From positions 1,054,001 through 1,118,000 of the forward strand of contig CP060758.1 in assembly GCA_023205875.1 (NCBI GenBank): 64,000 bases of DNA, in the 5' to 3' direction. Of the stretch, positions 1,903 to 53,328 are shown piece after piece. The notes beneath the pieces were generated by a model. The model was given only the letters and a program-made list of their open reading frames with translations. It was not told the origin of the DNA and did no database searches. Position numbers and translations under genes: made by a program. Position 1 is the stretch's first letter, and each line of letters opens with the position of its first letter. This DNA comes from Chloropicon primus (taxonomy: Eukaryota).

Positions 1903-3192
1903 ATGGGGAGGGGGAGGGGGAGTGCGCCCGGGAGGTTGGACTTCTTGGGAGGGGTGAGCGACTACAGCGGGGCGCTCGTGCTGGAGGCGGCGATACAATT
2001 GGAGACGAGGGTGACGATAGAGGGAAGGAAGGAGGAGGAAGGGCAGGATGGGAACAACGAACTGGTCGTGGAGGTCGAGAGCGTGCAGTTCCCGGGGACG
2101 GAGGCCGTCGTCTTGGGTCTCCGGGACCTCGAGGCGAAGGCGAGGGAGAGCCTGGAGCGCGTGAGGCTTCACTTGTCGTCCAGGGGGGCGCCGAAGTGGT
2201 CCTCCTACGTCCTTGGAACGCTGTCGTCCTTCTGCAGGTACCTAGGACGTTTTCCGACAGAGAGCATCCGCGTCGTGGTGGACTCGGACGTGCCCCACGG
2301 GCAGGGCGTCAGCAGCAGCGCCTCGGTGGAAGTCGCGGTGGTGAGGGCGCTGAGGGACTATTTTGAGGTCGAGGAGGAGGAGAGCCTCGACCTCGCGAGG
2401 CTGGCCCAGAGAGCGGAGAACGAAGTGGTCGGCGCTCCCTGTGGCATTATGGACCAGGTCGCTTGCCTCTTCGGTACGCACGGCGCCGTTCTCCCCATCA
2501 ACTGCGCGAGCGTGTCCCTGTCAGACTTGGTGTATTTGCCTGACGACATTGTCCTCGTCGGGTTCCCCACTCGAGTCCAACACGACCTCGCGGGGGAGTA
2601 CACTCCGTACGAGAGGGCCCGGACGGCCACGGCGATGGCGGCCAAGATCGCGCAGACCTGCCCCAATTCGCCAGAAATCCGTTCCCTGAGCGACATCGGA
2701 TGCTTGTCCCTCTCCAAGTTCGAGGCTTGCGTCAAGCCCCTGCTTCCCAAGACGCTGAGCGGGAGCGCTTTCCTCGCAAAATACGAGGGCGTTGGCGAGA
2801 TCGATGCCCTGAGCAGAGTGAAGCCGGACGAGGAGTACCCGGTTCTGGATGCAATGGAATTCGCCGTGCAGGCTTCGCTCTTCGCCGGCATTGCGCTTTC
2901 CCTTCTGGAGAGCAACGCTTTCTCTGAGAAGGCGGTGCAGGACAAGGCGCTGGCTCAAGTTGGCGAGCTCATGCTCTTGCAGCACCAGTCTTACAACAAA
3001 ATAGGTCTGGGGCACGTGCTGACGGACAGCATCATTGACTTGCTCATGTCTTTCGGCCCGGGCAACGGCATATACGGAGCGAGGTCGAGCGGCGGTGGTT
3101 CCGGGGGAACCATTTGCATCCTGTGCAACGAAGCAGCTTTGCCCATCATAGAAAACATCGCAAAAGAGTACAAGATTGAACTGATCCTGTAA
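1903..3192 (+). CDS. GHMP sugar kinase, L-arabinokinase/galactokinase-like
   Basis: APGRLDFLGGVSDYSG, PHGQGVSSSAS (GHMP ATP loop), ENEVVGAPCGIMDQ and YGARSSGGGSGG resemble the kinase domain of plant ARA1. ATG at 1903. Confidence 0.85.
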   Translation: MGRGRGSAPGRLDFLGGVSDYSGALVLEAAIQLETRVTIEGRKEEEGQDGNNELVVEVESVQFPGTEAVVLGLRDLEAKARESLERVRLHLSSRGAPKWSSYVLGTLSSFCRYLGRFPTESIRVVVDSDVPHGQGVSSSASVEVAVVRALRDYFEVEEEESLDLARLAQRAENEVVGAPCGIMDQVACLFGTHGAVLPINCASVSLSDLVYLPDDIVLVGFPTRVQHDLAGEYTPYERARTATAMAAKIAQTCPNSPEIRSLSDIGCLSLSKFEACVKPLLPKTLSGSAFLAKYEGVGEIDALSRVKPDEEYPVLDAMEFAVQASLFAGIALSLLESNAFSEKAVQDKALAQVGELMLLQHQSYNKIGLGHVLTDSIIDLLMSFGPGNGIYGARSSGGGSGGTICILCNEAALPIIENIAKEYKIELIL

Positions 3193-4205
3193 AAAAAAAC
3201 CACGACGACGACGTATTAGTCGTGAAATAACTCTATTTATATTATACTTATCCGAGGCTGAAGGCTAAACCGACATCCTTCAGGGAGGAGCAAGGGGGAG
3301 GAGCAGGGGGGAGGAGCAGGGGGATTTCTTGTGGAAATCTTTGGAGTCCGGAGCCGCAAAGTTTTCGGTCTTGGATTCCTTGAGGAATGGGGGAACGAAC
3401 GAACCATTCTTTCTCCCTCCTTTCATCCATGAGGAATAGAATAGGGTTGATATCTTGATATATGCTTTGCTCTCTGATTGCTCTCTGAATGAAGATTAGA
3501 TTAGATGCTTGTTGTGTGTTTTTTCTTTTTCCCGGGAGTGAATTATCTCTTGGTATCTCTTGGTATCCCTGGCTCCGTCCTTCCTCGTCCTTCCTTCCTT
3601 CCCCTTGGACTTTGTATGGACTTTGTCCTTCCCCGTCTCTTTGCTAGGTTTTCCTCCATCGGTATTCGTCCTCTTCCTCTTTGCGTCTTGCGGTCTCTTT
3701 GCACCTGTTTTCTACACGAACGTCAAAAACCTAGCACCGACGCCTTCCCGCGAAAATCTCAGAAAGTGTCACTCGAGGAGGCTATGGGTTTGCCTTTTCC
3801 TTCGCCTTTGGCTTTGCCTTTGGCTTTGCCTTTGGCTTGGCACAACCCCAACAACAAGGAGAGGAGGGCGGGATTGATTTCACGTTCACTTCACGTTCAC
3901 TTCACTTGAGGCTTGCTTGCTTGGGAAGGTCAAGGAAAGGGGAAACCGGGACCGGGAACAAGACAACTTCAGGAGAGGAACACAGAACAAGGACACGCTG
4001 TGCGTGCGTGCGGGAAGAAAGCAAGACACGATTTAGGATTTCTTCTCCTTGCCAAGCGGCGCGAAAAACTTGGGTGCATTGGGAAGAAAGATCTGAACTT
4101 GCGTTGCGTCGGGACAGTGGATAAGTGGACATCACAAGCCGTTGTCTGTCCCAGTTGAATTGTGTTGACGTTGTAAAAAGGTTCTAGCGGAAAGGAGAAA
4201 GACAA

Positions 4206-7200
4206 ATGGGGTGCGGTTCCTCTGCTCCAGTTGATAATGTGGAGGCCCCTACTCCAAAGCCAAAGCAGAAGACACCAGAGGCCCCTGCAAAGGCCGAGGT
4301 GGCGGTATCTGCCAATGGTGCTCCAGCCTTGCCTACTTTGTTGCCTCAGCCTGAGAACCCAACGGGCAAGATCGTCATGATCGAGTGCGAGGGCGGCAGC
4401 GACAAGAAGGCCGACGGACACAGAGGAGACACCATCCCTATCTCCAACGCCCTGATTGAGAAGGGTTGGGAGTGCGTCCCGGTGTTCTACTCTGACGCCA
4501 AGTACGACGAGGTCAAGGCCATGGTTATGGCTGCTGATGGATTCATCACCAGAATCAACCCTGGAACTTACCCTGGCGTCACCCAGAGCAAGGTCGACGA
4601 GATGCTCAGGGAGGCTGCCGCCGCTGGCGTTGCCCCCATGCAGCACCCTGATGTGATGCAGAAGATGGGTGCCAAGGACGCTCTCGTCAAGATCGCCAAC
4701 TTGTCTTGCGGTATGTCCGACACCTACGCTTACTACGACATTGAGAGCTTCAAGGAGAACTTCCCAAAGAGTGTAGCGACTGGAGTCAGGGTCCTCAAGC
4801 AGAACCGCGGCTCTCAGGGTGAGGGCATCTGGGTCTGCAAGGTGAAGGAGGGCCAGGAGGGCGAGGTCAACGGTTCCACTGTCTTGGATTTGCAGGAGGC
4901 TGTTGACAACCACAAGGAGGAGAAGACCGTTGATGAGTTCATGACCTTCTGCGAGCAGTACATCGTCGGAGAGAACGGTCAGCTCATTGATCAGCGCTTC
5001 TTGCCACGCATTGTGGAGGGCGAGCTCCGCGTGAACATGATCTACGACAAGCCAACCGAGATCGTTCACAAGAAGCCAGCTGAGGGAGGAATCTCTGCTA
5101 CTCTCAAGTCGGGTGCCAAGTACGTGTCTTACCAGCCCGATGATCCACAGTTCAAGAAGTTGATGGACGACTTTGTGAACAAGGATCTTCCACAGATCAT
5201 GCCTTGCTTGGGCATGGAGGGCATGCCGATCCCATTGATTTGGACCTCTGACTTCATTCTTGGAGACAAGGTTGACGGCGAGGACACCTACTTTGTTGGA
5301 GAGTTCAACTGCTCCTGCGTTGGCATCACTCAGCAGCTCCACCTCAAGGACCAGGTCGCCGATGCCGTCATCAAGATCGTCGAGATGACCAAGGGAATCG
5401 AGAACCCAGCTCCACCGCTCCCAGTGCTGCTGAAGCAGCCTGAGAACCCAACGGGCAAGATCGTCATGATCGAGTGCGAGGGCGGCAGCGACAAGAAGGC
5501 CGACGGACACAGAGGAGACACCATCCCTATCTCCAACGCCCTGATTAAGAAGGGTTGGAGTTGCGTCCCGGTGTTCTACTCTGACGCCAAGTACGACGAG
5601 GTCAAGGCCATGGTTATGGCTGCTGATGGATTCATCACCAGAATCAACCCTGGAACTTACCCTGGCGTCACCCAGAGCAAGGTCGACGAGATGCTCAGGG
5701 AGGCTGCCGCCGCTGGCGTTGCCCCCATGCAGCACCCTGATGTGATGCAGAAGATGGGTGCCAAGGACGCTCTCGTCAAGATCGCCAACTTGTCTTGCGG
5801 TATGTCCGACACCTACGCTTACTACGACATTGAGAGCTTCAAGGAGAACTTCCCAAAGAGTGTAGCGACTGGAGTCAGGGTCCTCAAGCAGAACCGCGGC
5901 TCTCAGGGTGAGGGCATCTGGGTCTGCAAGGTGAAGGAGGGCCAGGAGGGCGAGGTCAACGGTTCCACTGTCTTGGATTTGCAGGAGGCTGTTGACAACC
6001 ACAAGGAGGAGAAGACCGTTGATGAGTTCATGACCTTCTGCGAGCAGTACATCGTCGGAGAGAACGGTCAGCTCATTGATCAGCGCTTCTTGCCACGCAT
6101 TGTGGAGGGCGAGCTCCGCGTGAACATGATCTACGACAAGCCAACCGAGATCGTTCACAAGAAGCCAGCTGAGGGAGGAATCTCTGCTACTCTCAAGTCG
6201 GGTGCCAAGTACGTGTCTTACCAGCCCGATGATCCACAGTTCAAGAAGTTGATGGACGACTTTGTGAACAAGGATCTTCCACAGATCATGCCTTGCTTGG
6301 GCATGGAGGGCATGCCGATCCCATTGATTTGGACCTCTGACTTCATTCTTGGAGACAAGGTTGACGGCGAGGACACCTACTTTGTTGGAGAGTTCAACTG
6401 CTCTTGCGTTGGTATCACTCAGCAGCTCCACCTCAAGGACCAGGTCGCCGATGCCGTCATCAAGATCGTCGAGATGACCAAGGCCAACCCACCAGCTGCT
6501 CCTGCTGCTGCTGAAGCCCCAGCCTTGCCTACTTTGTTGCCTCAGCCTGAGAACCCAACGGGCAAGATCGTCATGATCGAGTGCGAGGGCGGCAGCGACA
6601 AGAAGGCCGACGGACACAGAGGAGACACCATCCCTATCTCCAACGCTCTCATTGAGAAGGGTTGGGAGTGCGTCCCGGTGTTCTACTCTGACGCCAAGTA
6701 CGACGAGGTCAAGGCCATGGTTATGGCTGCTGATGGATTCATCACCAGAATCAACCCTGGAACTTACCCTGGCGTCACCCAGAGCAAGGTCGACGAGATG
6801 CTCAGGGAGGCTGCCGCCGCTGGCGTTGCCCCCATGCAGCACCCTGATGTGATGCAGAAGATGGGTGCCAAGGACGCTCTCGTCAAGATCGCCAACTTGT
6901 CTTGCGGTATGTCCGACACCTACGCTTACTACGACATTGAGAGCTTCAAGGAGAACTTCCCAAAGAGTGTAGCGACTGGAGTCAGGGTCCTCAAGCAGAA
7001 CCGCGGCTCTCAGGGTGAGGGCATCTGGGTCTGCAAGGTGAAGGAGGGCCAGGAGGGCGAGGTCAACGGTTCCACTGTCTTGGATTTGCAGGAGGCTGTT
7101 GACAACCACAAGGAGGAGAAGACCGTTGATGAGTTCATGACCTTCTGCGAGCAGTACATCGTCGGAGAGAACGGTCAGCTCATTGATCAGCGCTTCTTGC

Positions 7201-8711
7201 CACGCATTGTGGAGGGCGAGCTCCGCGTGAACATGATCTACGACAAGCCAACCGAGATCGTTCACAAGAAGCCAGCTGAGGGAGGAATCTCTGCTACTCT
7301 CAAGTCGGGTGCCAAGTACGTGTCTTACCAGCCCGATGATCCACAGTTCAAGAAGTTGATGGACGACTTTGTGAACAAGGATCTTCCACAGATCATGCCT
7401 TGCTTGGGCATGGAGGGCATGCCGATCCCATTGATTTGGACCTCTGACTTCATTCTTGGAGACAAGGTTGACGGTGAGGACACCTACTTTGTTGGAGAGT
7501 TCAACTGCTCTTGCGTTGGTATCACTCAGCAGCTCCACCTCAAGGACCAGGTCGCCGATGCCGTCATCAAGATCGTCGAGATGACCAAGGCCAACCCACC
7601 AGCTGCTCCTGCTGCTGCTGAAGCCCCAGCCTTGCCTACTTTGTTGCCTCAGCCTGAGAACCCAACGGGCAAGATCGTCATGATCGAGTGCGAGGGCGGC
7701 AGCGACAAGAAGGCCGACGGACACAGAGGAGACACCATCCCTATCTCCAACGCCCTGATTGAGAAGGGTTGGGAGTGCGTCCCGGTGTTCTACTCTGACG
7801 CCAAGTACGACGAGGTCAAGGCCATGGTTATGGCTGCTGATGGATTCATCACCAGAATCAACCCTGGAACTTACCCTGGCGTCACCCAGAGCAAGGTCGA
7901 CGAGATGCTCAGGGAGGCTGCCGCCGCTGGCGTTGCCCCCATGCAGCACCCTGATGTGATGCAGAAGATGGGTGCCAAGGACGCTCTCGTCAAGATCGCC
8001 AACTTGTCTTGCGGTATGTCCGACACCTACGCTTACTACGACATTGAGAGCTTCAAGGAGAACTTCCCAAAGAGTGTAGCGACTGGAGTCAGGGTCCTCA
8101 AGCAGAACCGCGGCTCTCAGGGTGAGGGCATCTGGGTCTGCAAGGTGAAGGAGGGCCAGGAGGGCGAGGTCAACGGTTCCACTGTCTTGGATTTGCAGGA
8201 GGCTGTTGACAACCACAAGGAGGAGAAGACCGTTGATGAGTTCATGACCTTCTGCGAGCAGTACATCGTCGGAGAGAACGGTCAGCTCATTGATCAGCGC
8301 TTCTTGCCACGCATTGTGGAGGGCGAGCTCCGCGTGAACATGATCTACGACAAGCCAACCGAGATCGTTCACAAGAAGCCAGCTGAGGGAGGAATCTCTG
8401 CTACTCTCAAGTCGGGTGCCAAGTACGTGTCTTACCAGCCCGATGATCCACAGTTCAAGAAGTTGATGGACGACTTTGTGAACAAGGATCTTCCACAGAT
8501 CATGCCTTGCTTGGGCATGGAGGGCATGCCGATCCCATTGATTTGGACCTCTGACTTCATTCTTGGAGACAAGGTTGACGGTGAGGACACCTACTTTGTT
8601 GGAGAGTTCAACTGCTCCTGCGTTGGCATCACTCAGCAGCTCCACCTCAAGGACCAGGTCGCCGATGCCGTCATCAAGATCGTCGAGATGACCAAGGCCA
8701 ACTCTTCCTAA
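4206..8711 (+). CDS. Four-repeat Cj0069-family (DUF6815-like) ATP-grasp protein with N-terminal MGCGSS acylation motif
   Basis: 1501 aa, intronless. Each unit has GGSDKxxDGHRxDT, RINPG, HPDxMxxxGAKDAL, DTYAYYD, VLKQNRGSxGEGIW, FLPRIxEGExR, HKKPAEGGxSATL, PLIWTxDFIL and GEFNCSCVG, matching my recollection of the bacterial Cj0069 family. Confidence 0.85.
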   Translation: MGCGSSAPVDNVEAPTPKPKQKTPEAPAKAEVAVSANGAPALPTLLPQPENPTGKIVMIECEGGSDKKADGHRGDTIPISNALIEKGWECVPVFYSDAKYDEVKAMVMAADGFITRINPGTYPGVTQSKVDEMLREAAAAGVAPMQHPDVMQKMGAKDALVKIANLSCGMSDTYAYYDIESFKENFPKSVATGVRVLKQNRGSQGEGIWVCKVKEGQEGEVNGSTVLDLQEAVDNHKEEKTVDEFMTFCEQYIVGENGQLIDQRFLPRIVEGELRVNMIYDKPTEIVHKKPAEGGISATLKSGAKYVSYQPDDPQFKKLMDDFVNKDLPQIMPCLGMEGMPIPLIWTSDFILGDKVDGEDTYFVGEFNCSCVGITQQLHLKDQVADAVIKIVEMTKGIENPAPPLPVLLKQPENPTGKIVMIECEGGSDKKADGHRGDTIPISNALIKKGWSCVPVFYSDAKYDEVKAMVMAADGFITRINPGTYPGVTQSKVDEMLREAAAAGVAPMQHPDVMQKMGAKDALVKIANLSCGMSDTYAYYDIESFKENFPKSVATGVRVLKQNRGSQGEGIWVCKVKEGQEGEVNGSTVLDLQEAVDNHKEEKTVDEFMTFCEQYIVGENGQLIDQRFLPRIVEGELRVNMIYDKPTEIVHKKPAEGGISATLKSGAKYVSYQPDDPQFKKLMDDFVNKDLPQIMPCLGMEGMPIPLIWTSDFILGDKVDGEDTYFVGEFNCSCVGITQQLHLKDQVADAVIKIVEMTKANPPAAPAAAEAPALPTLLPQPENPTGKIVMIECEGGSDKKADGHRGDTIPISNALIEKGWECVPVFYSDAKYDEVKAMVMAADGFITRINPGTYPGVTQSKVDEMLREAAAAGVAPMQHPDVMQKMGAKDALVKIANLSCGMSDTYAYYDIESFKENFPKSVATGVRVLKQNRGSQGEGIWVCKVKEGQEGEVNGSTVLDLQEAVDNHKEEKTVDEFMTFCEQYIVGENGQLIDQRFLPRIVEGELRVNMIYDKPTEIVHKKPAEGGISATLKSGAKYVSYQPDDPQFKKLMDDFVNKDLPQIMPCLGMEGMPIPLIWTSDFILGDKVDGEDTYFVGEFNCSCVGITQQLHLKDQVADAVIKIVEMTKANPPAAPAAAEAPALPTLLPQPENPTGKIVMIECEGGSDKKADGHRGDTIPISNALIEKGWECVPVFYSDAKYDEVKAMVMAADGFITRINPGTYPGVTQSKVDEMLREAAAAGVAPMQHPDVMQKMGAKDALVKIANLSCGMSDTYAYYDIESFKENFPKSVATGVRVLKQNRGSQGEGIWVCKVKEGQEGEVNGSTVLDLQEAVDNHKEEKTVDEFMTFCEQYIVGENGQLIDQRFLPRIVEGELRVNMIYDKPTEIVHKKPAEGGISATLKSGAKYVSYQPDDPQFKKLMDDFVNKDLPQIMPCLGMEGMPIPLIWTSDFILGDKVDGEDTYFVGEFNCSCVGITQQLHLKDQVADAVIKIVEMTKANSS
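4347..8700 (+). repeat. Intragenic tandem repeat, 4 near-identical units of about 1.1 kb
   Basis: The anchor CAGCCTGAGAACCCAACGGGCAAG recurs at 4347, 5436, 6543 and 7650 (spacings 1089, 1107, 1107); only a few substitutions are visible between units. Confidence 0.97.
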
Positions 8712-8826
8712 GTAATTTATGACCTTGCGTTGTGCAATGTTTTTCTGAAATAGCGATTAAAAGATGAAAATACACATTAACTACTACAAAAAGAATGCGT
8801 GTGTGCGTCTTCGCGACGACGCGTCC

Positions 8827-9984
8827 CTACTCTTGCGGTCGATCTTTACCCGCTTCAGGGCTCTTCGTGGTGTGCGTCGCCCAGTCCAGAACGTCACTCA
8901 CCCCCATCTCGAAAAGATCGATGATTTTGTCCTCCCCAGGAGGCAGAAGCGCGTACTGAAGCATCTTGCGCATGGAATAGGAGCACTCCGAGTATTTGCC
9001 TGGCGCGATGTCGCACTCAAAGGGCATGTTCGGAAAGCAGCAGATGGTCACGGGCTCCTCGCAGGGTGGCTTTGGAATGAAGTTGGTTCCCAGGCCCCCA
9101 TCGACGCAGGTCAGACCACGGTACGTCGAGGTCACCTTGGTGTTCATGTACAATGGCACGTGAGACGACGTCAACAGAGCTTGGATCAGGTCCTCCTTTG
9201 ACTCGAAGTCGTTCACGTACACCGACTGCAAGAACGGAGACTGTTTGTTCACCCTCGTGATGCTGACGTTCAGCCTTCCGTTCGCCCTCACGTGCACGTC
9301 GTCGGGGAACACCATGTTGGCATACGTCTCGACAACGCTGCGTACGTTCCCCACGGTCCCCTCCTCCCGAAGCTGCCTGTACATCTCGAGGAGGTTGCCC
9401 ATCAGCTCCTCCGCACTCAAGTCACAGACGAGGCAGGCGCTGATGAGGGATCCCGCGGAGGACCCCGCGAAGACGGTCTCGTCGCTGACGAGGCCAAGGC
9501 GCTTGAGAGCGACCGCGTTCCCCACAAAGTAGGGAAAGAGAAGGCCACCAGCGGAGAACCCAAACCCAAGGCCAGGGGAGAGCTTCATCTCCTCCAAGTT
9601 CCAGTTCAAAGGCGTCTCCCCTTGCCCGCCGGTCTCCTCCAAGCCTTCAACAAAGCTCCCCTCCTCCGGCCTGTACGCCGGTCCGCCGCTGGCTTCCTGG
9701 CTCGCGACCCTCGACCGCACGAGGTTTCCCAGCCTGTCGAGCGGGCCCACCCGTGAAGGACCGGTCCTGCCGTCTGCAGCCGGCCTCTTCCCCGAGAAGG
9801 GCGACTGCGACTCGGAGGTGCTGGGCTTACTGCCCTTCTCCCCCCCCCCTCCCGCGTGGGTCGAAAGGTTCCGGCGGCGGTGATTCCCTTGCCTCAACGG
9901 TCCCTGGCGCTTTCCTCCAGGTGGCGCGCGAATCACCGTCCCACCGAGGCGTCCCAGCTGCATCATCCCCACAGCAGATCTCAT
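8827..9984 (-). CDS. Patatin-like phospholipase, probably plastid-targeted
   Basis: FSAGGLLFPYFVG glycine loop, GSSAG nucleophile motif, DGG motif; basic Ser/Gly-rich N-terminus. Confidence 0.88.
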   Translation of the reverse strand: MRSAVGMMQLGRLGGTVIRAPPGGKRQGPLRQGNHRRRNLSTHAGGGGEKGSKPSTSESQSPFSGKRPAADGRTGPSRVGPLDRLGNLVRSRVASQEASGGPAYRPEEGSFVEGLEETGGQGETPLNWNLEEMKLSPGLGFGFSAGGLLFPYFVGNAVALKRLGLVSDETVFAGSSAGSLISACLVCDLSAEELMGNLLEMYRQLREEGTVGNVRSVVETYANMVFPDDVHVRANGRLNVSITRVNKQSPFLQSVYVNDFESKEDLIQALLTSSHVPLYMNTKVTSTYRGLTCVDGGLGTNFIPKPPCEEPVTICCFPNMPFECDIAPGKYSECSYSMRKMLQYALLPPGEDKIIDLFEMGVSDVLDWATHTTKSPEAGKDRPQE

Positions 9985-10920: not shown

Positions 10921-13905
10921 ATGGAGAGAGGGAGGGTGAGGAGTGCGGTGGGAACGCCCAAGGGCCTCGGAGTGAGTGCAGGGCTGAGGAGGGGAAGGGA
11001 AAACAGGAGGAGGATGTTGAGGAGGGCAGGGGGGTGCGCGAGGGTGGGGACGAGCCAGGGCCAGGGCCAGGGCAGGTGCACCGCGAGGACTGCGACCGCG
11101 GCTCCTCTGTTGCCGGAGAGGAGGGGGGGGGTTGGGAAGGGGAGGGGAACGAGGACGAGGGTAGCGGCCGTGCAGGAAGTCGTGGGGCAGCTGAGTGACG
11201 CCTGGAGCGTGGGGACGGCAAACGGGTTGCCTCCTCAGCTGGAGGGGATCGAGACGCAGCTCTTCCAGGCGTCCCTTCTTCCGGAGCTCCTGTACTTGTG
11301 GTTCCTGTCCCGCCCGGAGGCGAAGACGCCTCCGCTGGCGAACACGGGGGCTCGCATGCTCCTCCTCTTCGTCTTCGCTACGATACCCGCAGGCATCGCC
11401 GCCAAGGTGCAGTTCGGGGACACTTTGGCGAACGTGGACGTGCTCCACGGGACGAGCGAGTCGCTGCTGACGTTCTCCAACCTGGTTCTGGCTTTGGGTT
11501 TCTCGCGCGCCTTGTTCACCGTGGATGGGGAGGGGAAGGAGCTCGATTTGGGGGCCTTTCCTGCCAAGGGCATCGCCAAGTTCGTTGGCCTCATCGCCGG
11601 GGTTTGCGGCCTTGGCTTCCTGGCCTCGAACCTCTTGATCGACTCGTCCACGCTGGACATGGAGCCCAGCAACGCCTTGTCCCTGCCCACGTGGGCGGTC
11701 CACGTGTCCTCGGTGGCGGAGTGGACGCTCGCGACTTCGCTGGTTTGGAAGTTTGCGGAGAAGTCGGGCAACCAGGCCTGGAAGGGCTTGAGCGTGGCGA
11801 TGTGCCTGAACTTGCTCAACGCCTACACCCCTTGCACGTGGCACGCCTTTTACAACTCCCCGGCCATCGGCGCCCTCGTGCCGTTGCAGGCCTTGCTGAC
11901 CCTGACCGGGTCCTCGGCGAGGGCCTTTGCCGCGTACCGCGTCTGCGAGGAGGGAAAGAGGCTGGAGGCTCAGCCGGAGGCCCAGGCCAACACGACGGAC
12001 AAGGAGAGTTCTTCTTCTTCTTCTTCTTCTTCTTCTTCTGGAGGATTTGACGAGGGCGGCTTCCTGGTCAAGCTCGCCCTCTTCGCGGGAGTGGGGGCGT
12101 TCGGCATCAAGTACGGCGAGCTCTTGGCCCCAGACTTTTTCATGGACCCGAGCTACGTCAAGGCCCTCGCCTTGATTTTGCTCCCGACGGCCGCCACCGC
12201 GGCCCTCATTACCAACGGCGGGGATGGCAACAAGCCCAAGCTGTCCATGGCCGATGTCAAGAGCTTTGGCGTGGCGGGAACGGTGTCCTACATCATCACC
12301 GAGCTGGCGTTTTGGGCCGTGGCATTCCCACTGGCTTTCAGCTGGTATCGCGTGGCGGAGGGAAGCTGGCTGGACCTGAGCAACGCGGCGGACAAGGCCA
12401 AGCTCCTTGGTGCCGGGACGGTCTTCATCAACGGCGTGAGGCTGTTGGTTCCCCTGCGCCTGGCGGCCGCCTTGGCCCTGGCCCCCACCGTGGAGAAGGG
12501 GCTGAAGGGACTGGGAGTCGACCTGAAGAAGAGCGAGGACGGGGAGAGCGAGAGCAGCGATGCCCCAGCGCCAGGCTCGAAGAACTTTGAGGGGGAGTGG
12601 GCCGACAGCGCGGAGGTTGACAATGAGAAGACCTTCTCATTCACCCAGCTCGCGAAGAACTTGGCTGGCTTTCAGAAGAACAGGGATCCGGAGGGCCCCC
12701 CTCTGGGAGGTCCATCGGGTCTGGAGGACCTGTCGAGCAGGCTGCCGGACTGTCCCAAGACCAGGTGGGACTCTGATGGCGTGGACATCGATGCCGTTCA
12801 GAAGCAGTACCAGGAGGAGGACATCCCGGACATCTTGACCATCAACGCCAAGGAATCCATCACAGGGGACGAGGAGGAGTGGCTGAGGTCGAACAGGGAG
12901 GATCTCAAGAAGAAGCTGCTGAAGCACGGGGCCATTCTGATCAAGGGAATGGAGACGAGCAAGAGCGGCGCGGGCTTCAGGAGGGTGTACGAGGCCCTGG
13001 ACCTGGATGTGTGCCTCGACCCCATCCACACGTCTGGCCTGAGAAAGTTCGCCATCGAGCAGGACGGGATCTACGAGGAGGTGAACAAGCCAGGCCTCAG
13101 GCAGCACTACATTGGCTTGCACAACGAGTCCACCACGAACAGGACGGCTGCGTTTGGGGCATTCGTTTGTTTCCTCCCGGCCACCGAGGGCGGGGGGGAC
13201 TTCTTCGTCGCCGACGGGAAGAAGATTCTGAGGGACATAGACCCCAAGGTGCTCAAGGAGCTGTACGACAAGAAGATCCGCATCTCTGTGTCGAACCTTG
13301 ACTTTTTCAAGCCCATCATCGAGAACCGCAACTTGTTCGGGGACTTTGACAAGGAGGTTCTGGTGCCCAGGGCCAAGGAGGACCTGGCCAAGGCCATCGG
13401 CAGCACCGTGGCCCCCAAGTTCGACATGGACCTCGAGATGGTCTGGGGGGCCGACGGCGCGAACGACGGGTACCGCCTGCAAGCCATCGAGCTGCCGGAG
13501 ACGCCCATCAACAGGCACCCCATCACGAAGGAGCCCGTCTGGTTCTGCAACATGCACAACCACTCGAGGTTCCTCAGGGACAACAGGCCCTGCACCGTGC
13601 CGGAGGTGGGCATGACGGAGACCTTCTTCGGGGACCTCTCCGCGATCCCGGAGAACGTCTTGGAGGAGGTCGACCGCGCCTCGAGGAAGAACATCGTCCC
13701 CACGCCGATGCAGGCGGGAGACGTCCTCCTGGTGGACAACTACAGGATGCTGCACGGGAGGGACATTTTCCAGGGGGATAGGCTGCACGCCGTGAGCTGG
13801 TTCACTTGGCCGGAGGAGGCCAACATCAAGGAGGCCGTCTCCAACACCAGCGAAGGAAACAACTTGAACAAAATCTTGAACAAGTACGTGGACTCTTTGA
13901 AGTAG
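10921..13905 (+). CDS. Plastid membrane fusion protein: DUF3593 + DUF2499 (Ycf49-like) + extra TM module + TauD/clavaminate-synthase-like Fe/2OG dioxygenase
   Basis: FVFATIPAG...LANVDVLHGxSESLLT (DUF3593-like); EPSNALSLPTWAVHVSSVAEW (DUF2499-like); GVAGTVSYIITELAFW...VRLLVPLRLA (DUF1279/FAM210-like); IGLHNE and GDVLLVDNYRMLHGR (HxE...H Fe ligands). One uninterrupted 994-aa ORF. Confidence 0.75.
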   Translation: MERGRVRSAVGTPKGLGVSAGLRRGRENRRRMLRRAGGCARVGTSQGQGQGRCTARTATAAPLLPERRGGVGKGRGTRTRVAAVQEVVGQLSDAWSVGTANGLPPQLEGIETQLFQASLLPELLYLWFLSRPEAKTPPLANTGARMLLLFVFATIPAGIAAKVQFGDTLANVDVLHGTSESLLTFSNLVLALGFSRALFTVDGEGKELDLGAFPAKGIAKFVGLIAGVCGLGFLASNLLIDSSTLDMEPSNALSLPTWAVHVSSVAEWTLATSLVWKFAEKSGNQAWKGLSVAMCLNLLNAYTPCTWHAFYNSPAIGALVPLQALLTLTGSSARAFAAYRVCEEGKRLEAQPEAQANTTDKESSSSSSSSSSSGGFDEGGFLVKLALFAGVGAFGIKYGELLAPDFFMDPSYVKALALILLPTAATAALITNGGDGNKPKLSMADVKSFGVAGTVSYIITELAFWAVAFPLAFSWYRVAEGSWLDLSNAADKAKLLGAGTVFINGVRLLVPLRLAAALALAPTVEKGLKGLGVDLKKSEDGESESSDAPAPGSKNFEGEWADSAEVDNEKTFSFTQLAKNLAGFQKNRDPEGPPLGGPSGLEDLSSRLPDCPKTRWDSDGVDIDAVQKQYQEEDIPDILTINAKESITGDEEEWLRSNREDLKKKLLKHGAILIKGMETSKSGAGFRRVYEALDLDVCLDPIHTSGLRKFAIEQDGIYEEVNKPGLRQHYIGLHNESTTNRTAAFGAFVCFLPATEGGGDFFVADGKKILRDIDPKVLKELYDKKIRISVSNLDFFKPIIENRNLFGDFDKEVLVPRAKEDLAKAIGSTVAPKFDMDLEMVWGADGANDGYRLQAIELPETPINRHPITKEPVWFCNMHNHSRFLRDNRPCTVPEVGMTETFFGDLSAIPENVLEEVDRASRKNIVPTPMQAGDVLLVDNYRMLHGRDIFQGDRLHAVSWFTWPEEANIKEAVSNTSEGNNLNKILNKYVDSLK

Positions 13906-45570: not shown

Positions 45571-48500
45571 TTAGTTCAGGGTCCCCTTGCAGGTCGGGGC
45601 GCCGCACTTGCACTCGATCTTGTTGGCAGCGTCCTCCTCCTGGAGCCTGTAGTCGAAGGTGAGCTCCTGTCCTGGCAGTATGTCGCATCTGGCGAAGAAG
45701 GCCAGGTGGGGCAAACCAGCCTTGGAGTCGTAGGCCGACTTGATGTAGCAAGAGGGGGCGCAAGAGTGGTTCATGAACCTGCCGATCGAACCGACGTCCG
45801 TGCTGTCGATGACCTGCCTCTCGTTTGCGGTGAATAGGTATAGGTCCTTGTTCTCCAGTTTGTACCTCAGCTCCCTCTGGTTCGCAACGCTGGGCCGAAC
45901 GATGTCCCCGCGGTACTCCACCACGGTCTCTCCCTCCTTGATGGCGACCTTGGCGAACAGGCCCCACCCGTGGATCACAGACTTGCCAAAGGTGACCTTG
46001 GCCTTCTCCGCCGCGGAGCACTTCTGGATCTGCTCCAGGAGGGGAACCACATCGAAAACGATCGTGGGGTCCTCGCTCTCGCTCTTGGCCTTCTGCTTCT
46101 TCCTCTTCCTCTTCAACTTCGCTTCCTCGACCTGGCCAGGATTCCTCTTGCGGTAAGCCAAGCTCAGCTTGTTGATCTCTAGGCCCTCCTTGAGCAGCCA
46201 CTGCATCACGGTGTACTTGTCCTCCTTCAACACCTTGGCCCTCACCTTCCTCTTCTTGGGATGCAACAGCCTCGCCCGGTTCTCAAACTCCTCCAGGGTC
46301 ACCAACTCCACGCCCAGATCCTCCGCGGCAGCGTCCTCTGCCACCGGCTCTCTCACCTCCTCCTTCGGTGCGCCGTCGGCCGCGGCCACGGGGCGTGCCG
46401 GAGACCCCAGCTCGGGGTTCTTGGACAACTCCTCCTCCCTGAACTTGGAAACCAGCGAGGCTACCTCCTCCTCGGACGGGGAATCGCACGACAGAAGATT
46501 GACAGTGTCGTCGTGGTATTCCGCAACAAATTCGATCAATTCCGTCACCTTTGTTCGGATAACCGTGTGAAGCTCATCTTCCGGCATCAAAGTGACGGAA
46601 TCAGACAACGAGACGGGGTCGTTGGCGGGTTTCGGGCTCCCTTCCCCGCCTTGCAGCTTTGGCATGGCCGAGGCAGGTGTCCCGGCGGCTTTCCTCGGCA
46701 CCTCGACTCGTCTCGTGTGCACATGAAAAATCCCGCGCATGCCATTGCACACGATGTAGATCGCGTCCGGAATTTTGCCAATCCTTGGCTTCCTGTAATC
46801 CCCTTCCTTGGCGAGCCACTGGACCTTCTCCACAACCATTCTGGGCTCGAACCACTCGAAGCTCCCGTCGTCGTAAATGATCCTGAGCCTGCCATCCAGG
46901 AAGTTGAAATCGTCCACGACACCATAGTAGAAAGAGTCGTCCTCCCACTCCACGGACACACGCCATCCCACGCAAAACAGTCCGAGGCAAAGGGGGTGGA
47001 ACAGAGATCCCTCCTGCCTGAACAGAAGCTCAAAGGGAGGCCGCCTTTTCCTCTTGGCCGTCAGCTGAGGCTGAAACAAGTCCTTCCACTTGATCACCTC
47101 GTCCCCGAATTTGATGGACCGCATCAGGGTAACCGGGGCGGCAGTTGGCAGGGCCGAGACTTTCAGATACGCCGGCGGCGGCTTCAAGACCGCCACATGC
47201 AACACGGACTTGTCCAAATCAAAGCCCTCCACAGTGCAAGTCAGGGTTTTGCTGCCAGGAAGAGAGTGACTGAGCTTGAGCTCGGCGCCAACAACGCCCT
47301 TGCCAGGGAACATGCCGAGAAACGCTTTGAATTCCATCATCTGGATCAAGCGGTTGACAACCCAAGGCACAACCTCCTCTGCCGTGGTCGGCTCCACGGG
47401 TCGCTGAGCAGCTTTCTTCGCCTCTTCTTCCTCTTCGACGCCCTTGGCCACCGCTTCCACGACTGCATCGACGAAAGACTTCACGGCCGCGTCAACCTCG
47501 GCATCTTCTGCGGCTACATTGTCCTTCTGATCGCCGCCGCTCTCCTTGTTCATGGCGTTGGCATCGTCCTCGGGTCCTTGCACGGCCACGGGGTGCTTCT
47601 GCAGCCACTGCTCTGCGGTCCATGCCTTGAAGCTCGGAATTTTCTTTTCCTTGCTGGGAAACTTGACCCTGTAGGCAAGACCACGCACGAAGGCTTGCTT
47701 GCCGGTACGAGGCCTTCGCTCTGCCCTCTGGTTGTTCATTGTGGGCCTGACGTCAATCGGAATGTTCTTCCTGGACCGGCTGAATCTGCTCGACTCGAAA
47801 CCATTTTCAAGCAGCCAGATCCCCACCGTTTGCTGCGTCTGGTCGACCTCCTTGCTCATGTGGATGCTCTTCTTCCACTCGCTAGGCTCCCAACCATGAC
47901 CTGCCAGTTCCACAAACATTTCTGGAGTCAAGTAAAGGCCGAGGAAGCTCACTTCTTTGGAAGACGTGCAAAGGTGACCAGTCAAGCCATTGCACTCGAC
48001 AGGAACGATCGTTGGCTGCTTGATCCGCTCCTCGCTCCACTCAAATTTCTCTTTGCCGAAATCAAGCCACTCCTTCATTCCATCGTCGTACCAGACGTGA
48101 ACTTTGCCATCAAACGGGTTGTAGGCCCCGACTTGGCCATAGTAGAACTGCTTGTCATCCTCCCACCAGATACCAACCCTCTTGCCTACGCAGTGCCCCA
48201 AGTCCTTCCGCGGCGGCGCCTCCTCGTCCATGCCGGGCAAAGTTGCGGGGCCAGAAGAAGACGACTCTGAAAGATTCATCTCCCACCTTATCTTCTGATC
48301 CGTCAACTTCAGCCACTCCAGGTACCCCGTCTGATACTCGATCCTGTGAACATCGTGCTCCCTACTATACGCCACAACTTTAGCAGAGTGCCACTTGTCT
48401 TCCTCGGACCAAAAAATCGAAAATTTCTGCCCAACCACGGCCATTCCCAGCTGCCTGCGAAGGGTCTGCTTGTCATCGACCAAGGCAGCCTCGCTCTCCC

Positions 48501-51500
48501 CGGGTGGCTTCTTTTCTATGTCCCCAGAAGCAATTCCAGTGTCTTGGCCCACGACCTGCTGCAGTATGCCTGCCAAGACTTCTTGGATAGCTCTCTCGTC
48601 GCCGTCCTCTTGCGAGGGCTCGGGCGACTTCTCTGACAAGTCAGTCTCCGTGCCTTGGGTCGCACCACCTTCATCGGGGCCACACTCTGTCGGCTCCACA
48701 ACTGACGGGTCTTTCACTGATTGAGCCACATCGTCGTGTGCACTAACCTGCTGGACTATTTCCTCGACTATCTCAGTCACGGCATTTTCGACCTCGTGAT
48801 GCTCCATGCGTGCTCTCCATTGCTCGTACTGTTCCCTTCGCCTCGTGTTCATCAAAAGTCTGAAGAGCTGCTCTTTTTCCAACTTGAATTGACCAAGCCA
48901 GTCACTCATGGGTAGTGCAGGATCCCCAGCCTCGTTGCAAGCCCACAAAGACGTCTTCCACTTCTTCGCATGGGATTTCCCCCCCACCTTCTCGAAGATG
49001 GATGGCGGAAGAGTTTTGCCATCGTACAACACGTTCTGAGTACGAACGTTCATAACGCCAAAGGCTTTGCCGCAGCAGACTTTGATCTCCTCTGGGCAAC
49101 CTTCTGGAAGGGGAAGCAGCTCAACTGGTTTTGTCACCCACGATTTTCTTGCTCTGCCATTGGACTTGGGCAGCTTAGCTTTGGTCTCTTTGGGAGGAAG
49201 CGCAACCTCCACGACGGGCAGCGGCTCTGGTATCCAGAATCCCTTGGTGCTGCTGATGCCTCGGCCGCTTCCCTTGGCCTCCCTCTCCCAACCAAGAGAG
49301 CGATCCAAGGGTTCCAATCTCGAGCACCCGCTTGGGCATTTGATGTCAAGGGGCGGCAGGTCAATGTGAAAGACGTACTGCGAGGGATCCGTCAAGCACT
49401 TCTTCCCTTCTATCTCAACTTCACTTGTCGCAGGGAGCAATCCCTTGCCCGGTTTTATCTCTTTGCTGTGTCTCGCGCAGTAGGCCCGGCATTCAATCGT
49501 CCCATTCTCTGTCTCGATGGTCTCCATCTCAAAGCCTTTCATCCTCGCGCAGAGTGGATGGAAAGCGACGTAGCAGCTGTCGCACTGGATGATTACACCC
49601 TGCTCGACTTTACAAATCGAACATTTCTTCGTCCACCGGTCTTTGTGGATGTGCTGGACTCTAGCGATGGGTTCTACTCGCTCCTGGTCAAGGACGGTTA
49701 GCTCTGGGATCCACTGGCAGCAGGCAACATGGCACCAGTGACCCTTAATGGTCGTTGGCTTTAGGGCCCCTCCCTCCACTGGGCAAACGCAGCACTGCGG
49801 CGCCTTTTCCCCCTTTTTCTGGTTCTCGCATGCTCTGCACAGCCAGACATCATCAAGAGCAGGACGCTTCATGACCCCATAACAGAATTGGTGTACAGTG
49901 ACCCCACAAGCCGTACAAGTGATGAACTGGTTGAAATCATAGTCGTAGTCAAGGTTGCAGACTGAGCAGTGGTCTTTCGCCCACCTCGCCCTCACAGGAG
50001 TGAATGACTTGAGGTTCACGGCATTCCATGGCCCCTTGGCCCTTCTCGGCGCAGATGAATCGATCCCACTTTGAGTTTTTGAAGGGGCGAGCTTCTCTGC
50101 TGCCGGCTTCTTCTTCTTCTTCTCAGAGCCCGCCGAGGCTTTGGCGAGGTATTCGCCTTGGAGATGCGCTCCAAGCTCCGTCCAGGCATTCTTCACAGCT
50201 TCCTCCTCCTCGTTGACGGACCGTATCGAGAAGCCCTTTTTCTTTCTGGCTTGCACCAAATAGTCCACAGCAAAAAGACGCTTTGCCTCCATTTGCAACT
50301 TGGTGCCCTGGTTGAGGAAGGTCACGCCCTTTGAGAACTTGGAAGCCTTGCGGTGCTTGGTGAATATCTCTCGACAAATGACGCACTTGTACGGGACCTC
50401 GCTGTTCGGGTTCTTGGCCTGCATTGCGATCACGTTCGCCGCCTCAGGATCGCACCTCCCGTGAATCCAACTGTTGCAAGAGTCGCAGCACGCCATGTCC
50501 TTCTCAGTCGGCAAGTACAAGTCCTCACAAACTTTGCAAAAATCTCCATTCTCATAGCAATTCTTGCACGATCTGCAGAGGTTCGTCCAGCGGCGCGCCT
50601 CGTGAGAAACCCCACCCTTCAGCACGCAGTTACAGCTCTTGCATCTGGGAGTTCCATCGTCAACCACGACTTTCTCGGCTCCGGGCTCTGCCTGATCAGG
50701 AGGGGGCACATCAACCTCCTCAACGCCCTGGCAATCCTCTCCCCTCTGAATCCTTTCCGCGATATCAATGGCCTTGAAGTAGTTGCAAGATTTGTGGGAC
50801 TTTGTGATCCTTTGGGTTCTGAAATTTTCCACGTATTCCTTGAAAGGCAAAATGTCGCCCTTTCCAATCCAGCCGTAGTCCGCTCCCCTCTGCTCCTTAG
50901 AGCTCGGGCCAAGATAAATGACGCTGAGCGTCTTTACTTTCCTCAGCCTCTTCACAGCATCTGGGAGCTGATTGAGATCGACGATCTGGGCCGGCCAGAA
51001 AGGGCATCCTCTGCTCTTGGCCCACACGATGTCATTCACTTCGAAATGCTCGAGGGGCACCACAGGTAGTTTCTCCTCCACCTTTGCGACTTGGACCGGA
51101 GGTTCCTCCCTTTTGGCTTTCTTTGGTTTGCTTCCATTCGTAGGGTAGCCAAAGTCTTCGATGACCTTTGGTTTCGGGACCCTGAGGCCGGCGGCTATCC
51201 TCTTCTTCATGGCTGCAGACAATTCCTCCTCCTTGGCCTTAGCCTTTGCCGCCTTTTCCTCCGCAGTCTCCTCTGGTTTTTTCCTTTTCACCGTTTTGCC
51301 CACTTTGGCTTGGGCACTGGCATCGCCCGCCTTCCCCTTCTTTAGCTTACCGTCCTTGTAGACGTAACCCAAAGCACTGCAAGCCTGCTGGATGGCCATC
51401 TCCCTTTGTGTCACCAACTTCGGATTCCTTTGCTTCTTCTTTAATGCCTTGGTGGTGGTGGTGCTTTTGTCCAACGACGCGTGTTCCTCGAAGTGATCGA

Positions 51501-53132
51501 GAAACGGCACAACTTGGGAGGAATCGACGACGCCTCGATCCCTGACATCCTTTCCGAAGAAAAGGATAGAGACCCTCTTATTCTTGCTGCTTTGGCCACC
51601 GTTCATGGCCTCGTCAGGATCCACCAGCTTCTCGCAGGGCCACCAAGGATACCCCTTCATTCTGGCCCAAACAATGTCCTCGGGCCTCGCCCTGACAAGC
51701 TGCTGCATCTTCCTCTGAGCCTTGGCAACTTCTTTCCGCGGAGACTTGACCTTCTTTTTTGGCATGGACTCGGGGTCAACGACTCGGTACTTTGTGTCCC
51801 CGGCATCCAAGTCCACGTACTCGATCAGCAGGTCCTCCTCATACTGAACGCAGTGCTTGAACTTCTTGCTCTTGCCTTCCTGCTTGTGAGCAATTACGGT
51901 CGCGGAGCAAAACTTTTTGAGGTCGTCAAACCAGATCTCAACCCTCGTGCGAACGGGGTGAAATGTCCGGCTCTTCTTCTTCATCCTCTTCTTCTCCTTG
52001 TCCTTGCCTCCCTCCTCCTTGGCTTGCTTCACTGCACTCGCCGCGGCAACCTTTCTCTTCTTCGGCGCCCCCTTCACCTCAACCAGCCGGTATACCGTGC
52101 CCCCGTCATGCAGATCGACGGGCTCTTCGTCCCCATCGTCGTACCTGATGTGGTGAAGCTCCCCCTTCCCCTTCTTCTTCTTCGTCACCATGACGACGGT
52201 TCCGGGATAGTACTGAGGGGGGTTATCGAACAAAACCTCGAGCCTCGTTCCCACGGGCAAAGATCCAGGCTCTGCTGCCCCCTGCGCATCCTGGTCCGTC
52301 GCCTTGGTCTTCCGCTTTCCCCCGGTCCGGTTCCTCTTCTGATCTCCGCTCTCCACTTTGCTCTTTCTTCCCCTCTTCTTGCCCGTCTTCAGCGGTCCCG
52401 TCTCCGTGTCGTCGCTGCCCTCCGGGAGCAGGCGGTACATCGTTTCCCTGGAGCGAGGGTCGAGGTCATCCTCGTCCCCATCGTCGTACCTGACGTGGTA
52501 CAGCTGCCTGCCCCGGGCCTCGACCTTGGCCTCAATAGTCCCCGGGTACCAGCCGCCTGGCAGGGAGCCACCGGCCTCGAAGTGCACCTCCACCCTCCGT
52601 CCCACCAGGTCCGCCTCCTCCACCACCCGGAACGTCGTGGCATCGGCGTGCAGGTCCTCCTCCCCCACCTCGCCGTCGTCGTACCTGATGCTGTAGATTC
52701 CCGTCTCCCAATCGAACGCGGTGACCACGCCACCAAAGTACTGCTTCGGGTTGTCCCACAGGATCTCAACCCGGGTCTCCACAGGAACGAGATCCGAGGA
52801 GCCGGCAGAACCCCCTGCGGCAGCGTGTTCAAGGGGCGCCGGAACCGCCGCCTCGGCCACCTCACCCACGACCTCGTCGAGCAGCTGGACAATCTCCCCG
52901 TTCCCTCTACCGCCGTCCTCTGTCGTCGACGGGACGGCCGACGGGACCTCCACCACTCTCACACGGCTGTGCTTCGCTACCCCCCCCTCGCTCCCGCTCG
53001 TGCTCGCGTTCTGGTTGGTGTCCTCCCTCCGCTCGTCCTCGCGTCCGTTCGAAGGAACTTCCGCTTCGTTCTCCTCCTCCTTCTCCCCTCTTCCACCTTC
53101 GCGTTCGCGTTCGCCCACAACAAAGCAACCGT

Positions 53133-53163
<31 letters not shown>

Positions 53164-53328
53164 CTTCTTCTTCTTCTTCGTGTTCGTGTTCGTGTTCGTT
53201 TGTTGTTGCTTGGCGATCATCTTCCTTTGTTTTTGTTTTTGTTTTTGTTGTTGCTCCTCTCCTCCAGGTGGAGGTTGTGGTGGTGTTCCCCTCCCCCCTC
53301 CCCCTTCCTCCGTCCCCGTGTCCACCAT
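45571..53328 (-). CDS. Trithorax/ATX-like histone H3K4 methyltransferase (Tudor-like x7, PWWP x2, PHD x2 + ePHD, SAND-like x2, SET, post-SET)
   Basis: YDDG Tudor-like repeats; WARMKGYPWWP and WAKSRGCPFWP; PHD cysteines; CPVEGGALKPT; FGKSVIHGWGLFA, RFMNHSCAP, ELTFDY, CKCGAPTCKG. First ATG at 53328 (the track start at 53388 is TTG). Confidence 0.88.

Follow-up and report, generated by a model that had tools for sequence, protein, structure and literature searches.

A predicted membrane-tethered chain of four near-identical Cj0069-family ATP-grasp units in the green alga Chloropicon primus

A 64,000-nucleotide stretch of Chloropicon primus DNA (GenBank contig CP060758.1, positions 1,054,001 to 1,118,000; hereafter "the window") contains an intron-free open reading frame (ORF) that raises the question of what a green alga does with four nearly identical copies of an ATP-grasp domain in a single polypeptide, behind an N-terminus that reads as a lipidation signal. 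The ORF lies on the forward strand at 4206..8711, runs from ATG to TAA, and encodes 1501 amino acids (aa) comprising an acylation motif, a spacer, and four units of the Cj0069 family, also known as DUF6815. In our best explanation, which as a whole we advance tentatively and with somewhat less than even confidence, two acyl groups would hold the chain on the cytosolic face of a membrane; each unit would bind ATP and Mg, phosphorylate a carboxylate, and transfer the acyl group to an amine; the tandem copies would give several active sites per anchor; and the product would be a small glutathione-like (thiol or gamma-glutamyl) peptide for redox or metal stress, made in a stage unseen in ordinary culture.

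All elements of the ORF are on the forward strand. It begins with MGCGSS (4206..4223), a predicted signal for N-myristoylation (G2, S6) and S-palmitoylation (C3), and continues with a 41-aa Pro/Lys/Ala-rich spacer (4224..4346) that extends to residue 47 and whose final 11 residues reappear at the close of linkers 2 and 3. Four complete units of 349 aa follow: unit 1 (4347..5393), unit 2 (5436..6482), unit 3 (6543..7589), and unit 4 (7650..8696). They are joined by linker 1 (5394..5435; 14 aa, type A), linker 2 (6483..6542; 20 aa, type B, Pro/Ala), and linker 3 (7590..7649; 20 aa), which sequence comparison shows to be the same as linker 2, and the chain closes with a tail of four residues and the stop codon (8697..8711). 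The repeat periods are 363, 369, and 369 aa. The units differ from one another at 1–7 of 1047 nucleotides (nt), corresponding to DNA identities of 99.3–99.9%; five of the nine variable sites are synonymous, and the other four produce E38K and E42S, both in unit 2 alone. Unit 3 is identical in protein sequence to units 1 and 4, and unit 4 carries a single synonymous change relative to unit 1. The S42 state of unit 2 also occurs in relatives P0002 and P0234, a linker similar to linker 1 occurs in relative P0122, and a linker nearly equal to linker 2 occurs in P0234. No further paralog of the unit is present within the 64-kb window.

Each unit is, on profile and model evidence, a full Cj0069-family protein of ATP-grasp fold. 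In particular, the NCBIfam model Cj0069_fam (NF033816) matches unit 1 over positions 1–334 of 334 with 365.9 bits, well above its cut-off of 150, and the Pfam model DUF6815 (PF20668) matches the ORF in four stretches, over 105/105 positions, with 484 bits against a cut-off of 28. An AlphaFold2 (AF2) model of unit 1, built from a 102-row family alignment, has a predicted local distance difference test score (pLDDT) of 96 and a predicted template modelling score (pTM) of 0.92, and matches ATP-grasp structures with a Foldseek probability of 1.00. Comparison of the model by VIA-align with the folds ranked high by Foldseek gives Z scores of 17–21.6: DcsG (PDB 6jil) is the top match (Z 21.6; root-mean-square deviation 3.6, 282 residues aligned), followed by GshB (PDB 1gsa; Z 21.1; root-mean-square deviation 3.6, 278 aligned), with RimK (20.6) and ArgX/LysX (20.3) tied with both within about 1, and with PPIP5K2 (18.5), Ddl (17.8 or less), and synapsin (17.7) below these ligases. 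Profile comparison yields a similar set of names. With profiles built from 20 GshB and 27 RimK sequences, the unit family matches GshB at 97.1% (E 5.5e-11) and RimK at 95.5% (E 1.5e-8); against single E. coli proteins, it matches GshB at 85%, RimK at 53%, and DdlB at 0.5%; and against PDB sequences, the sole matches are RimK and LysX/ArgX (E 0.018–0.47). A phmmer search of one unit against PDB sequences gave no significant match, a search of a phage collection gave none, and the ESM Atlas returned DUF6815 clusters only, which give no lead to function.

Alignment of the unit with E. coli GshB reveals that most of the GshB-type active site is kept (unit numbering; counts are rows of the 102-row family alignment). 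Specifically, the equivalents of GshB D19/S20 are D28/T29 (kept in 89 and 78 rows), of R86 is R69 (93), of K125 is K110 (98), of K160 is K151 (99), of D208 is E226 (92), of R210 is R228 (98), of D273 is D302 (101), of E281 is E319 (96), and of N283 is N321 (99). The ATP/Mg-site set, comprising K110, K151, G155/G158/G160, D302, E319, and N321, is kept in 96–101 rows for each residue. The catalytic roles of the aligned GshB residues are assumed here; our literature search found no paper that gives them. C322 (85 rows) and C324 (92 rows) form an N-C-S-C sequence at the place of GshB N-V-T-S; the two cysteines adjoin the metal-binding Glu/Asn, at the position of the GshB T285/S286 loop, and may, as a matter of speculation, act as a redox gate or an acyl-thioester relay. 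The ratio of nonsynonymous to synonymous substitution rates (dN/dS) of the unit is 0.10–0.16 in comparisons with three relatives, and the unit is under purifying selection. In its make-up the unit thus resembles a working ligase of the GshB kind whose substrate site is its own, and it is a member of neither GshB nor RimK; the GshB-type residues D28-T29, R69, and R228 would support the statement that it works like GshB, not that it is one. We consider it likely that the unit is an active amide ligase using the acyl-phosphate chemistry of ATP-grasp ligases (bioRxiv 10.1101/2021.03.09.434688).

The preliminary description of this locus had assigned the units to the Cj0069/DUF6815 family and the ATP-grasp fold, an assignment borne out by the profile and structure matches above, and had read MGCxxS as a G2/C3/S6 acylation motif. 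The second claim also agrees with what we find. MGCGSS fits the MGxxxS motif described in passages of PMC6678300, with the Cys at position 3 that those passages associate with G2/C3 dual acylation, and the form MGCG[TSA]S is kept in relatives, including Tetraselmis chuii, whose start is MGCGTS. Of 173 leader-bearing proteins, 50 begin with MG and have a Cys among their first eight residues; most are near relatives (three of the 50 are false starts inside a unit). Dual acylation and membrane anchoring of the Chloropicon chain are thus a prediction from the motif in which we place high confidence. Other leaders differ: those of P0037, P0040, P0043, P0046, P0047, P0056, and P0059 are basic and hydrophobic and resemble, by eye, mitochondrial presequences, from which it appears that targeting differs among lineages.

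The identity of the product is the least secure part of our explanation. We tentatively prefer a glutathione-like peptide to a protein tag or a ring, at a confidence that falls short of even, and three kinds of context bear on this preference: fusions, plasmid neighbourhoods, and expression. A search for longer proteins gave 108 matches, in which the fusion domains are histidine phosphatase (8), glutathione S-transferase (GST; 7), EF-hand (3), C2 (3), and phosphagen kinase (2), with one each of glyoxalase, adenylate kinase, AMP-binding, CH, and MORN; a separate search yielded fusions to DM10 and PH. The GST fusions, which together with the glyoxalase fusion we take as links to thiol chemistry, fall in two separate clades of the tree. 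In dinoflagellates the chains are extended by domains of the histidine phosphatase, GST, EF-hand, or C2/PDZ kinds. On plasmids, seven records were opened from 25 matches: chrA or chrB lies within 6 kb in five, the family gene is near a gene for Fe-Mn superoxide dismutase (SOD) in four, six of the seven are near a chr or SOD gene and one is near neither, and one shows a 4-nt overlap with chrA. The plasmid loci, which belong to a distant Cj0069 subfamily and sit in or beside chrB/chrA and Fe-Mn SOD genes on proteobacterial plasmids, are L007:4463-6924, L008/L009:2753-7014, L010:2153-6927, L005:4133-6969, and L006:72-5967. A literature search found no paper linking an ATP-grasp gene to chromate/SOD operons.

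Bacterial chromosomes add no partner. In this comparison the family ORF was retained in 58 of 72 chromosomal loci, an overlapping antisense frame having been called in its place in others, and the scan took in 40 of 44 recurring neighbour sets; each neighbour family is confined to at most 4 of the 18 sequence groups, and nine further chromosomal bacterial loci have no shared neighbour. A conserved bacterial operon was accordingly rejected for the chromosomal loci. The lack of a conserved partner gene fits an enzyme that uses common substrates.

Expression in culture is the third kind of context. The gene is deposited as A3770_05p40310, for which Supplementary Data 2 of PMC6731263 lists a mean culture RNA-seq depth of 0, with 3.47 and 80.56 for its neighbours. 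In three runs presumed to be RNA from single organisms (X5, X9, X16), contigs reach the 3′ end of the convergent neighbour, a patatin-like gene, and not the four-unit ORF; contigs from the patatin side extend to 8729, and a hole in such contigs proves nothing. A metatranscriptome (X19) has one identical 247-nt contig over 8545-8791, which may be DNA or the 3′ end of the neighbour; other metatranscriptome contigs are 80–97% alike and come from relatives.

A number of points weigh against this explanation. By score, the unit is no glutathione synthetase, with 16.3 bits on TIGR01380 against a cut-off of 299 (the GshB cut-offs are 272 and 299), and GshB D88, R225, R233, and N235, which are invariant in 20/20 GshB rows, are replaced by N71, K242/243, S250, and T252. 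The family is sparse in bacteria: a sample of 401 proteobacterial genomes contained it in 8 cases, and 14 control genomes in 1; the one positive control genome is that of Corynebacterium glutamicum, an organism that has mycothiol instead of glutathione. True GshB also occurs in four of the five Cj0069-bearing proteobacteria tested, and non-orthologous replacement of GshB was rejected on this count. Fusion partners other than GST are as common as GST (histidine phosphatase, 8/108), and dinoflagellate gene models may be chimeric. The plasmid genes form a distant subfamily with 26–35% identity to the query, and the seven records include one element twice. Silence in culture is not rare, 15.6% of all genes having a depth below 1 in PMC6731263 as far as its supplement lists them, and a depth of 0 could be due in part to the handling of reads that map to repeats. 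A measured activity of any family member was not found in the literature searched. The same search found no paper mentioning DUF6815; in the portions of PMC2764114, PMC4013439, and PMC5841378 that name it, Cj0069 is listed as a secretion-screen match, an antigen, or a hypothetical protein, and the passages and one supplement of PMC12301720 make no mention of the four-unit gene.

Of the rival explanations, the one that survives best is a protein-tagging ligase that, like RimK or LysX, would add amino acids onto a protein carboxylate. It would work on the plasma membrane, or on that of the flagellum, in a motile or gamete stage that is cryptic. The domains DM10, MORN, CH, EF-hand, PDZ/C2, adenylate kinase, and phosphagen kinase, which are among the eukaryotic fusion partners, are common in flagellar proteins. 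RimK and LysX/ArgX (PDB 5zct, 3vpb, 3vpd) tie with GshB in structure (Z 20.0–20.6), have a similar P-loop and substrate-loop region, and are the sole PDB sequence matches of the profile. G2/C3 dual acylation sends calflagin and RP2 to flagella and cilia, according to passages of PMC6678300, and, in the supplement and passages of PMC6731263, a depth of 0 is also given for many intraflagellar transport genes of an alga that is non-motile and keeps a near-complete flagellar gene set. Against this stand the distribution and the active site. The BLAST table in Supplementary Data 2 of PMC6731263 lists homologs in 3 of 13 genomes (Micromonas commoda, M. pusilla, and Bathycoccus) and none in Ostreococcus (2), Helicosporidium, Auxenochlorella, Chlorella, Coccomyxa, Chlamydomonas, Gonium, Volvox, and Klebsormidium; the flagellates Chlamydomonas, Gonium, and Volvox are thus without one in that table, and the non-flagellate Bathycoccus has one. 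The RimK R-S-N loop motif is not kept, being aligned to S-A-T, and no RimK-family model is among the NCBIfam matches at E up to 0.1. In addition, no carrier or target gene is conserved near the bacterial members, and several homologs have, by eye, organelle-like leaders. We regard a tagging ligase as unlikely, while giving it more weight than any other rival.

Returning to the catalytic chain of our explanation, we compared the number and likeness of units across the family. In a set of 418 proteins, in which long proteins and cluster mates are over-represented and some short-read cases may be assembly loops, 305 proteins contain full units: 265 have one, 30 have two, six have three, three have four, and one has five. 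Two of the three four-unit proteins are the Chloropicon gene itself. The third is from Effrenium; Symbiodinium has a chain of three, Tetraselmis has a chain of two, and Bryopsis BSKO_01637 (GMH33803.1, P0121) has five units that are 93–98% alike, on an 11.4-Mb contig. All four are uncharacterised database records with tandem near-identical units, and the Bryopsis protein differs from the Chloropicon chain in having an N-terminal adenylate kinase in place of the acylation motif. The same pairing is seen in three related bacterial loci, where the family gene is immediately followed by one for adenylate kinase (e.g. L038:1642-2304). In 20 of the 40 multi-unit proteins every unit is at least 93% identical, and multi-unit chains are scattered across the tree. 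In a separate case, P0126 (924 aa), a bacterial-type and a green-alga-type unit that are 54% alike and fall in different parts of the tree are joined in one protein, as a real chimera or a mis-assembly.

Relatives that are 90–94% identical have a type-A-like linker (P0122) or a type B linker (P0234), and the units within each chain are 99–100% alike. Because both linker types occur in these relatives while the units within chains are so nearly identical, we infer a greater age for the array than its 99% identity implies, with gene conversion or unequal crossing-over keeping its units alike. Some relatives have a single unit but share their ends with two-unit forms, and these may be assemblies in which the repeat has collapsed. 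The unit number ranges from 2 to 5 across species, so that four looks to be no fixed stoichiometry. On this comparison, we think it probable that the units, rather than forming a fixed tetramer, act as a string of catalytic beads, which would provide each anchor with several active sites and whose identity homogenisation would maintain.

The alternative, that the four units fold into a fixed pseudo-tetramer mimicking an oligomer of GshB or RimK type and were fused for that reason, strikes us as improbable. GshB and RimK are homotetramers, four units are present both here and in Effrenium, and the linkers here are short (14–20 aa); the related graspetide ligase PsnB is a dimer, as stated in a portion of bioRxiv 10.1101/2021.03.09.434688. 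Opposed to these are the chains of two, three, four, or five units in different species, the hint from read depth of a fifth unit here, and the linker length in relatives, which ranges from about 6 to 50 aa. A two-unit AF2 model, weak evidence in itself, folds both units (pLDDT 88) and leaves their arrangement undefined (pTM 0.54, linker pLDDT <50). A homodimer prediction for one unit, in which the alignment was unused, scored 0.00 against a mark of 0.32 and is no evidence either way.

Less probable still is that the units perform no peptide ligation, and act instead as a cyclase of the DcsG kind, or as a kinase or nucleotide-binding module of ATP-grasp fold like PPIP5K/ITPK or synapsin. DcsG is the top fold match, PPIP5K2 and synapsin reach Z 18.5 and 17.7, and three of the fusion partners, namely adenylate kinase, phosphagen kinase, and histidine phosphatase, are suggestive of phosphoryl chemistry. 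The likeness to DcsG is, however, a tie in fold; the identity to DcsG is 11–13%, and there is no pathway context. The kinases lie about 3 Z units under the ligases, and the GshB-type residues off the ATP site (D28/T29, R69, R228) are kept. We therefore rate a cyclase or kinase as distinctly unlikely and retain the ligase of our explanation, in which GshB remains the closest described relative by profile, with equivalents from D19/S20 to N283.

The preliminary description had claimed four complete domains, joined behind MGCGSS, and this is upheld by the ORF, by a second deposited record, and by read depth. The C. primus record QDZ21513.1 (A3770_05p40310, P0230), which shares a 90% cluster with the window protein, has the matching N-terminus, four units, and the unit-2 variants, and the gene upstream of it is also annotated as galactokinase. 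It is without 45 aa at the unit 2/linker 2 junction, a gap that is probably a spurious intron or an assembly slip of that annotation. Short reads come from a single sample sequenced in two DNA runs; this may be the source sample itself, so the reads do not count as independent. Both linker types are present letter for letter in contigs of these runs; the long repeat contigs have 4.2, 4.4, and 5.2 times the depth of the flanks, where the four-unit model predicts 3.8–3.9 times; linkers 2 and 3 have 1.8–2.6 times (predicted 2); and linker 1 has 1.8–2.1 times, where 1 is predicted, all subject to the tool's own warning that copy number is poorly reflected by contig depth. The unit count is no fewer than about four, and, since linker 1 is deeper than predicted, a fifth unit is perhaps present on some chromosome copies. 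A 223-nt contig from a relative in a marine RNA library (X20 record 13) bridges unit, type B linker, and unit, and does not imply transcription. Two single-nucleotide polymorphisms reported in the four-unit gene, at allele frequencies of 0.30 and 0.32, are consistent with reads mis-mapped between the repeats, and no large indel in the gene is published among the 12 rows for chromosome 5 in Supplementary Data 8 of PMC6731263. An assembly artefact, or a silent, decaying gene amplified neutrally, would suit the 99.3–99.9% unit identity, the published depth of 0, the frequent assembly of close relatives with one unit, and the fact that no listed read piece spans the array, yet it is very improbable given the same four units in a second record, two distinct linker types and unit-specific variants, a depth at least about four times that of the flanks, a dN/dS of 0.10–0.16 against three relatives, tandem chains of other species on megabase contigs (Bryopsis, 11.4 Mb), and a cluster shared by one- and two-unit forms with the same ends, in which the singles may be collapsed short-read assemblies.

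The preliminary description fared less well on origin, where it had proposed a recent transfer of a single-domain bacterial enzyme. In a first search for proteins of similar length, the top of the list (best 120 of 2576) is eukaryotic where named, with Cymbomonas, Vitrella, Pavlova, Lotharella, Hanusia, Baffinella, and Nephroselmis, and the best named bacterium among these 120 is Helicobacter, with about 51% identity. Other named eukaryotic matches are Tetraselmis, Pycnococcus, Bryopsis, cryptophytes, dinoflagellates, and Aureococcus, and the members of matching clusters include Tetraselmis striata (686 aa, two units), Pycnococcus provasolii, and T. chuii. The unit is 72–75% identical to Bryopsis, Vitrella, and the clusters that hold Tetraselmis and Pycnococcus. 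Trees were calculated with FastTree from 231 units (365 before thinning at 88% identity) and with IQ-TREE (LG+G4) from 63 hand-picked rows; the root rests on a long branch. The nearest named rows to the window unit are the Pycnococcus cluster and Bryopsis (path 0.48–0.49), and the green-alga group, which also holds Vitrella, has a support of 96 in FastTree and 81/46 in IQ-TREE. The ten named or locus-based bacteria form two groups in IQ-TREE, each behind a 100/100 branch. Nephroselmis groups with Helicobacter-type bacteria, and for this reason there are at least two eukaryotic lineages. The nearest rows are thus green algae and Vitrella, and the strongly supported branches separate all named bacteria from the window unit, so that the trees lend no support to the enzyme having entered Chloropicon recently from bacteria; it has probably long been resident in microbial eukaryotes. 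Nor is the family single-domain and bacterial, as had been stated: many eukaryotes are named in it, and 40 of 305 full-unit proteins have 2–5 units. The preliminary description had also named a broad distribution across Viridiplantae as an argument against recent transfer and novelty; this objection applies in part, the family being broad and, within Chlorophyta, patchy.

What is of interest here concerns the family as a whole: a GshB-like orphan ligase that eukaryotes have repeatedly multiplied and retargeted, rather than a one-off bacterial import. The family is present in Campylobacter/Helicobacter, in Corynebacterium, on chromate-resistance plasmids, and in many abundant marine protists, and it has no described reaction and an intact GshB-like active site. 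The Chloropicon units are full-length members, with about 51% identity to Helicobacter-type proteins; the named bacterial members, by comparison, are single-domain proteins of about 345 aa that lack the acylation motif. Our literature search, mostly without subscription journals, found no paper on the eukaryotic range of the family, its kinship to GshB, or its tandem habit. A wider proposal, which we offer as improbable in its entirety, is that Cj0069 is an unrecognised GshB-derived ligase family of bacteria and many microbial eukaryotes that makes an undescribed thiol peptide (or protein tag) by way of a redox-gated N-C-S-C sequence, that eukaryotes have repeatedly made homogenised chains of it aimed at membranes, flagella, or organelles, and that the acylated four-to-five-unit form of Chloropicon marks a hidden motile or stress stage. 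The acylated, culture-silent gene is also a candidate marker of the motile or sexual stage that the genome implies and that is unseen in culture.

The GC content at third codon positions (GC3) of the four-unit ORF is 0.74, at the low end for the long gene-like ORFs of the window (about 0.70–0.91) and no outlier, and base composition was rejected as a sign of transfer. Domain searches identify a GHMP kinase gene on one flank (1903-3192) and, on the other, the patatin-like gene on the reverse strand (8827-9984), which is convergent with the four-unit ORF and separated from its stop codon by a gap of 115 nt (8712-8826). Upstream of the four-unit gene, the region 3800-3910 contains short tandem repeats, with a 12-nt repeat unit near 3808-3840 and an 11-nt repeat unit near 3879-3908. 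Elsewhere in the window, a 994-aa ORF on the forward strand (10921-13905) combines DUF3593, DUF2499, and a TauD-type dioxygenase domain, and a 2585-aa ORF on the reverse strand (45571-53328) lies in a low-GC stretch (GC about 0.54, GC3 0.72).

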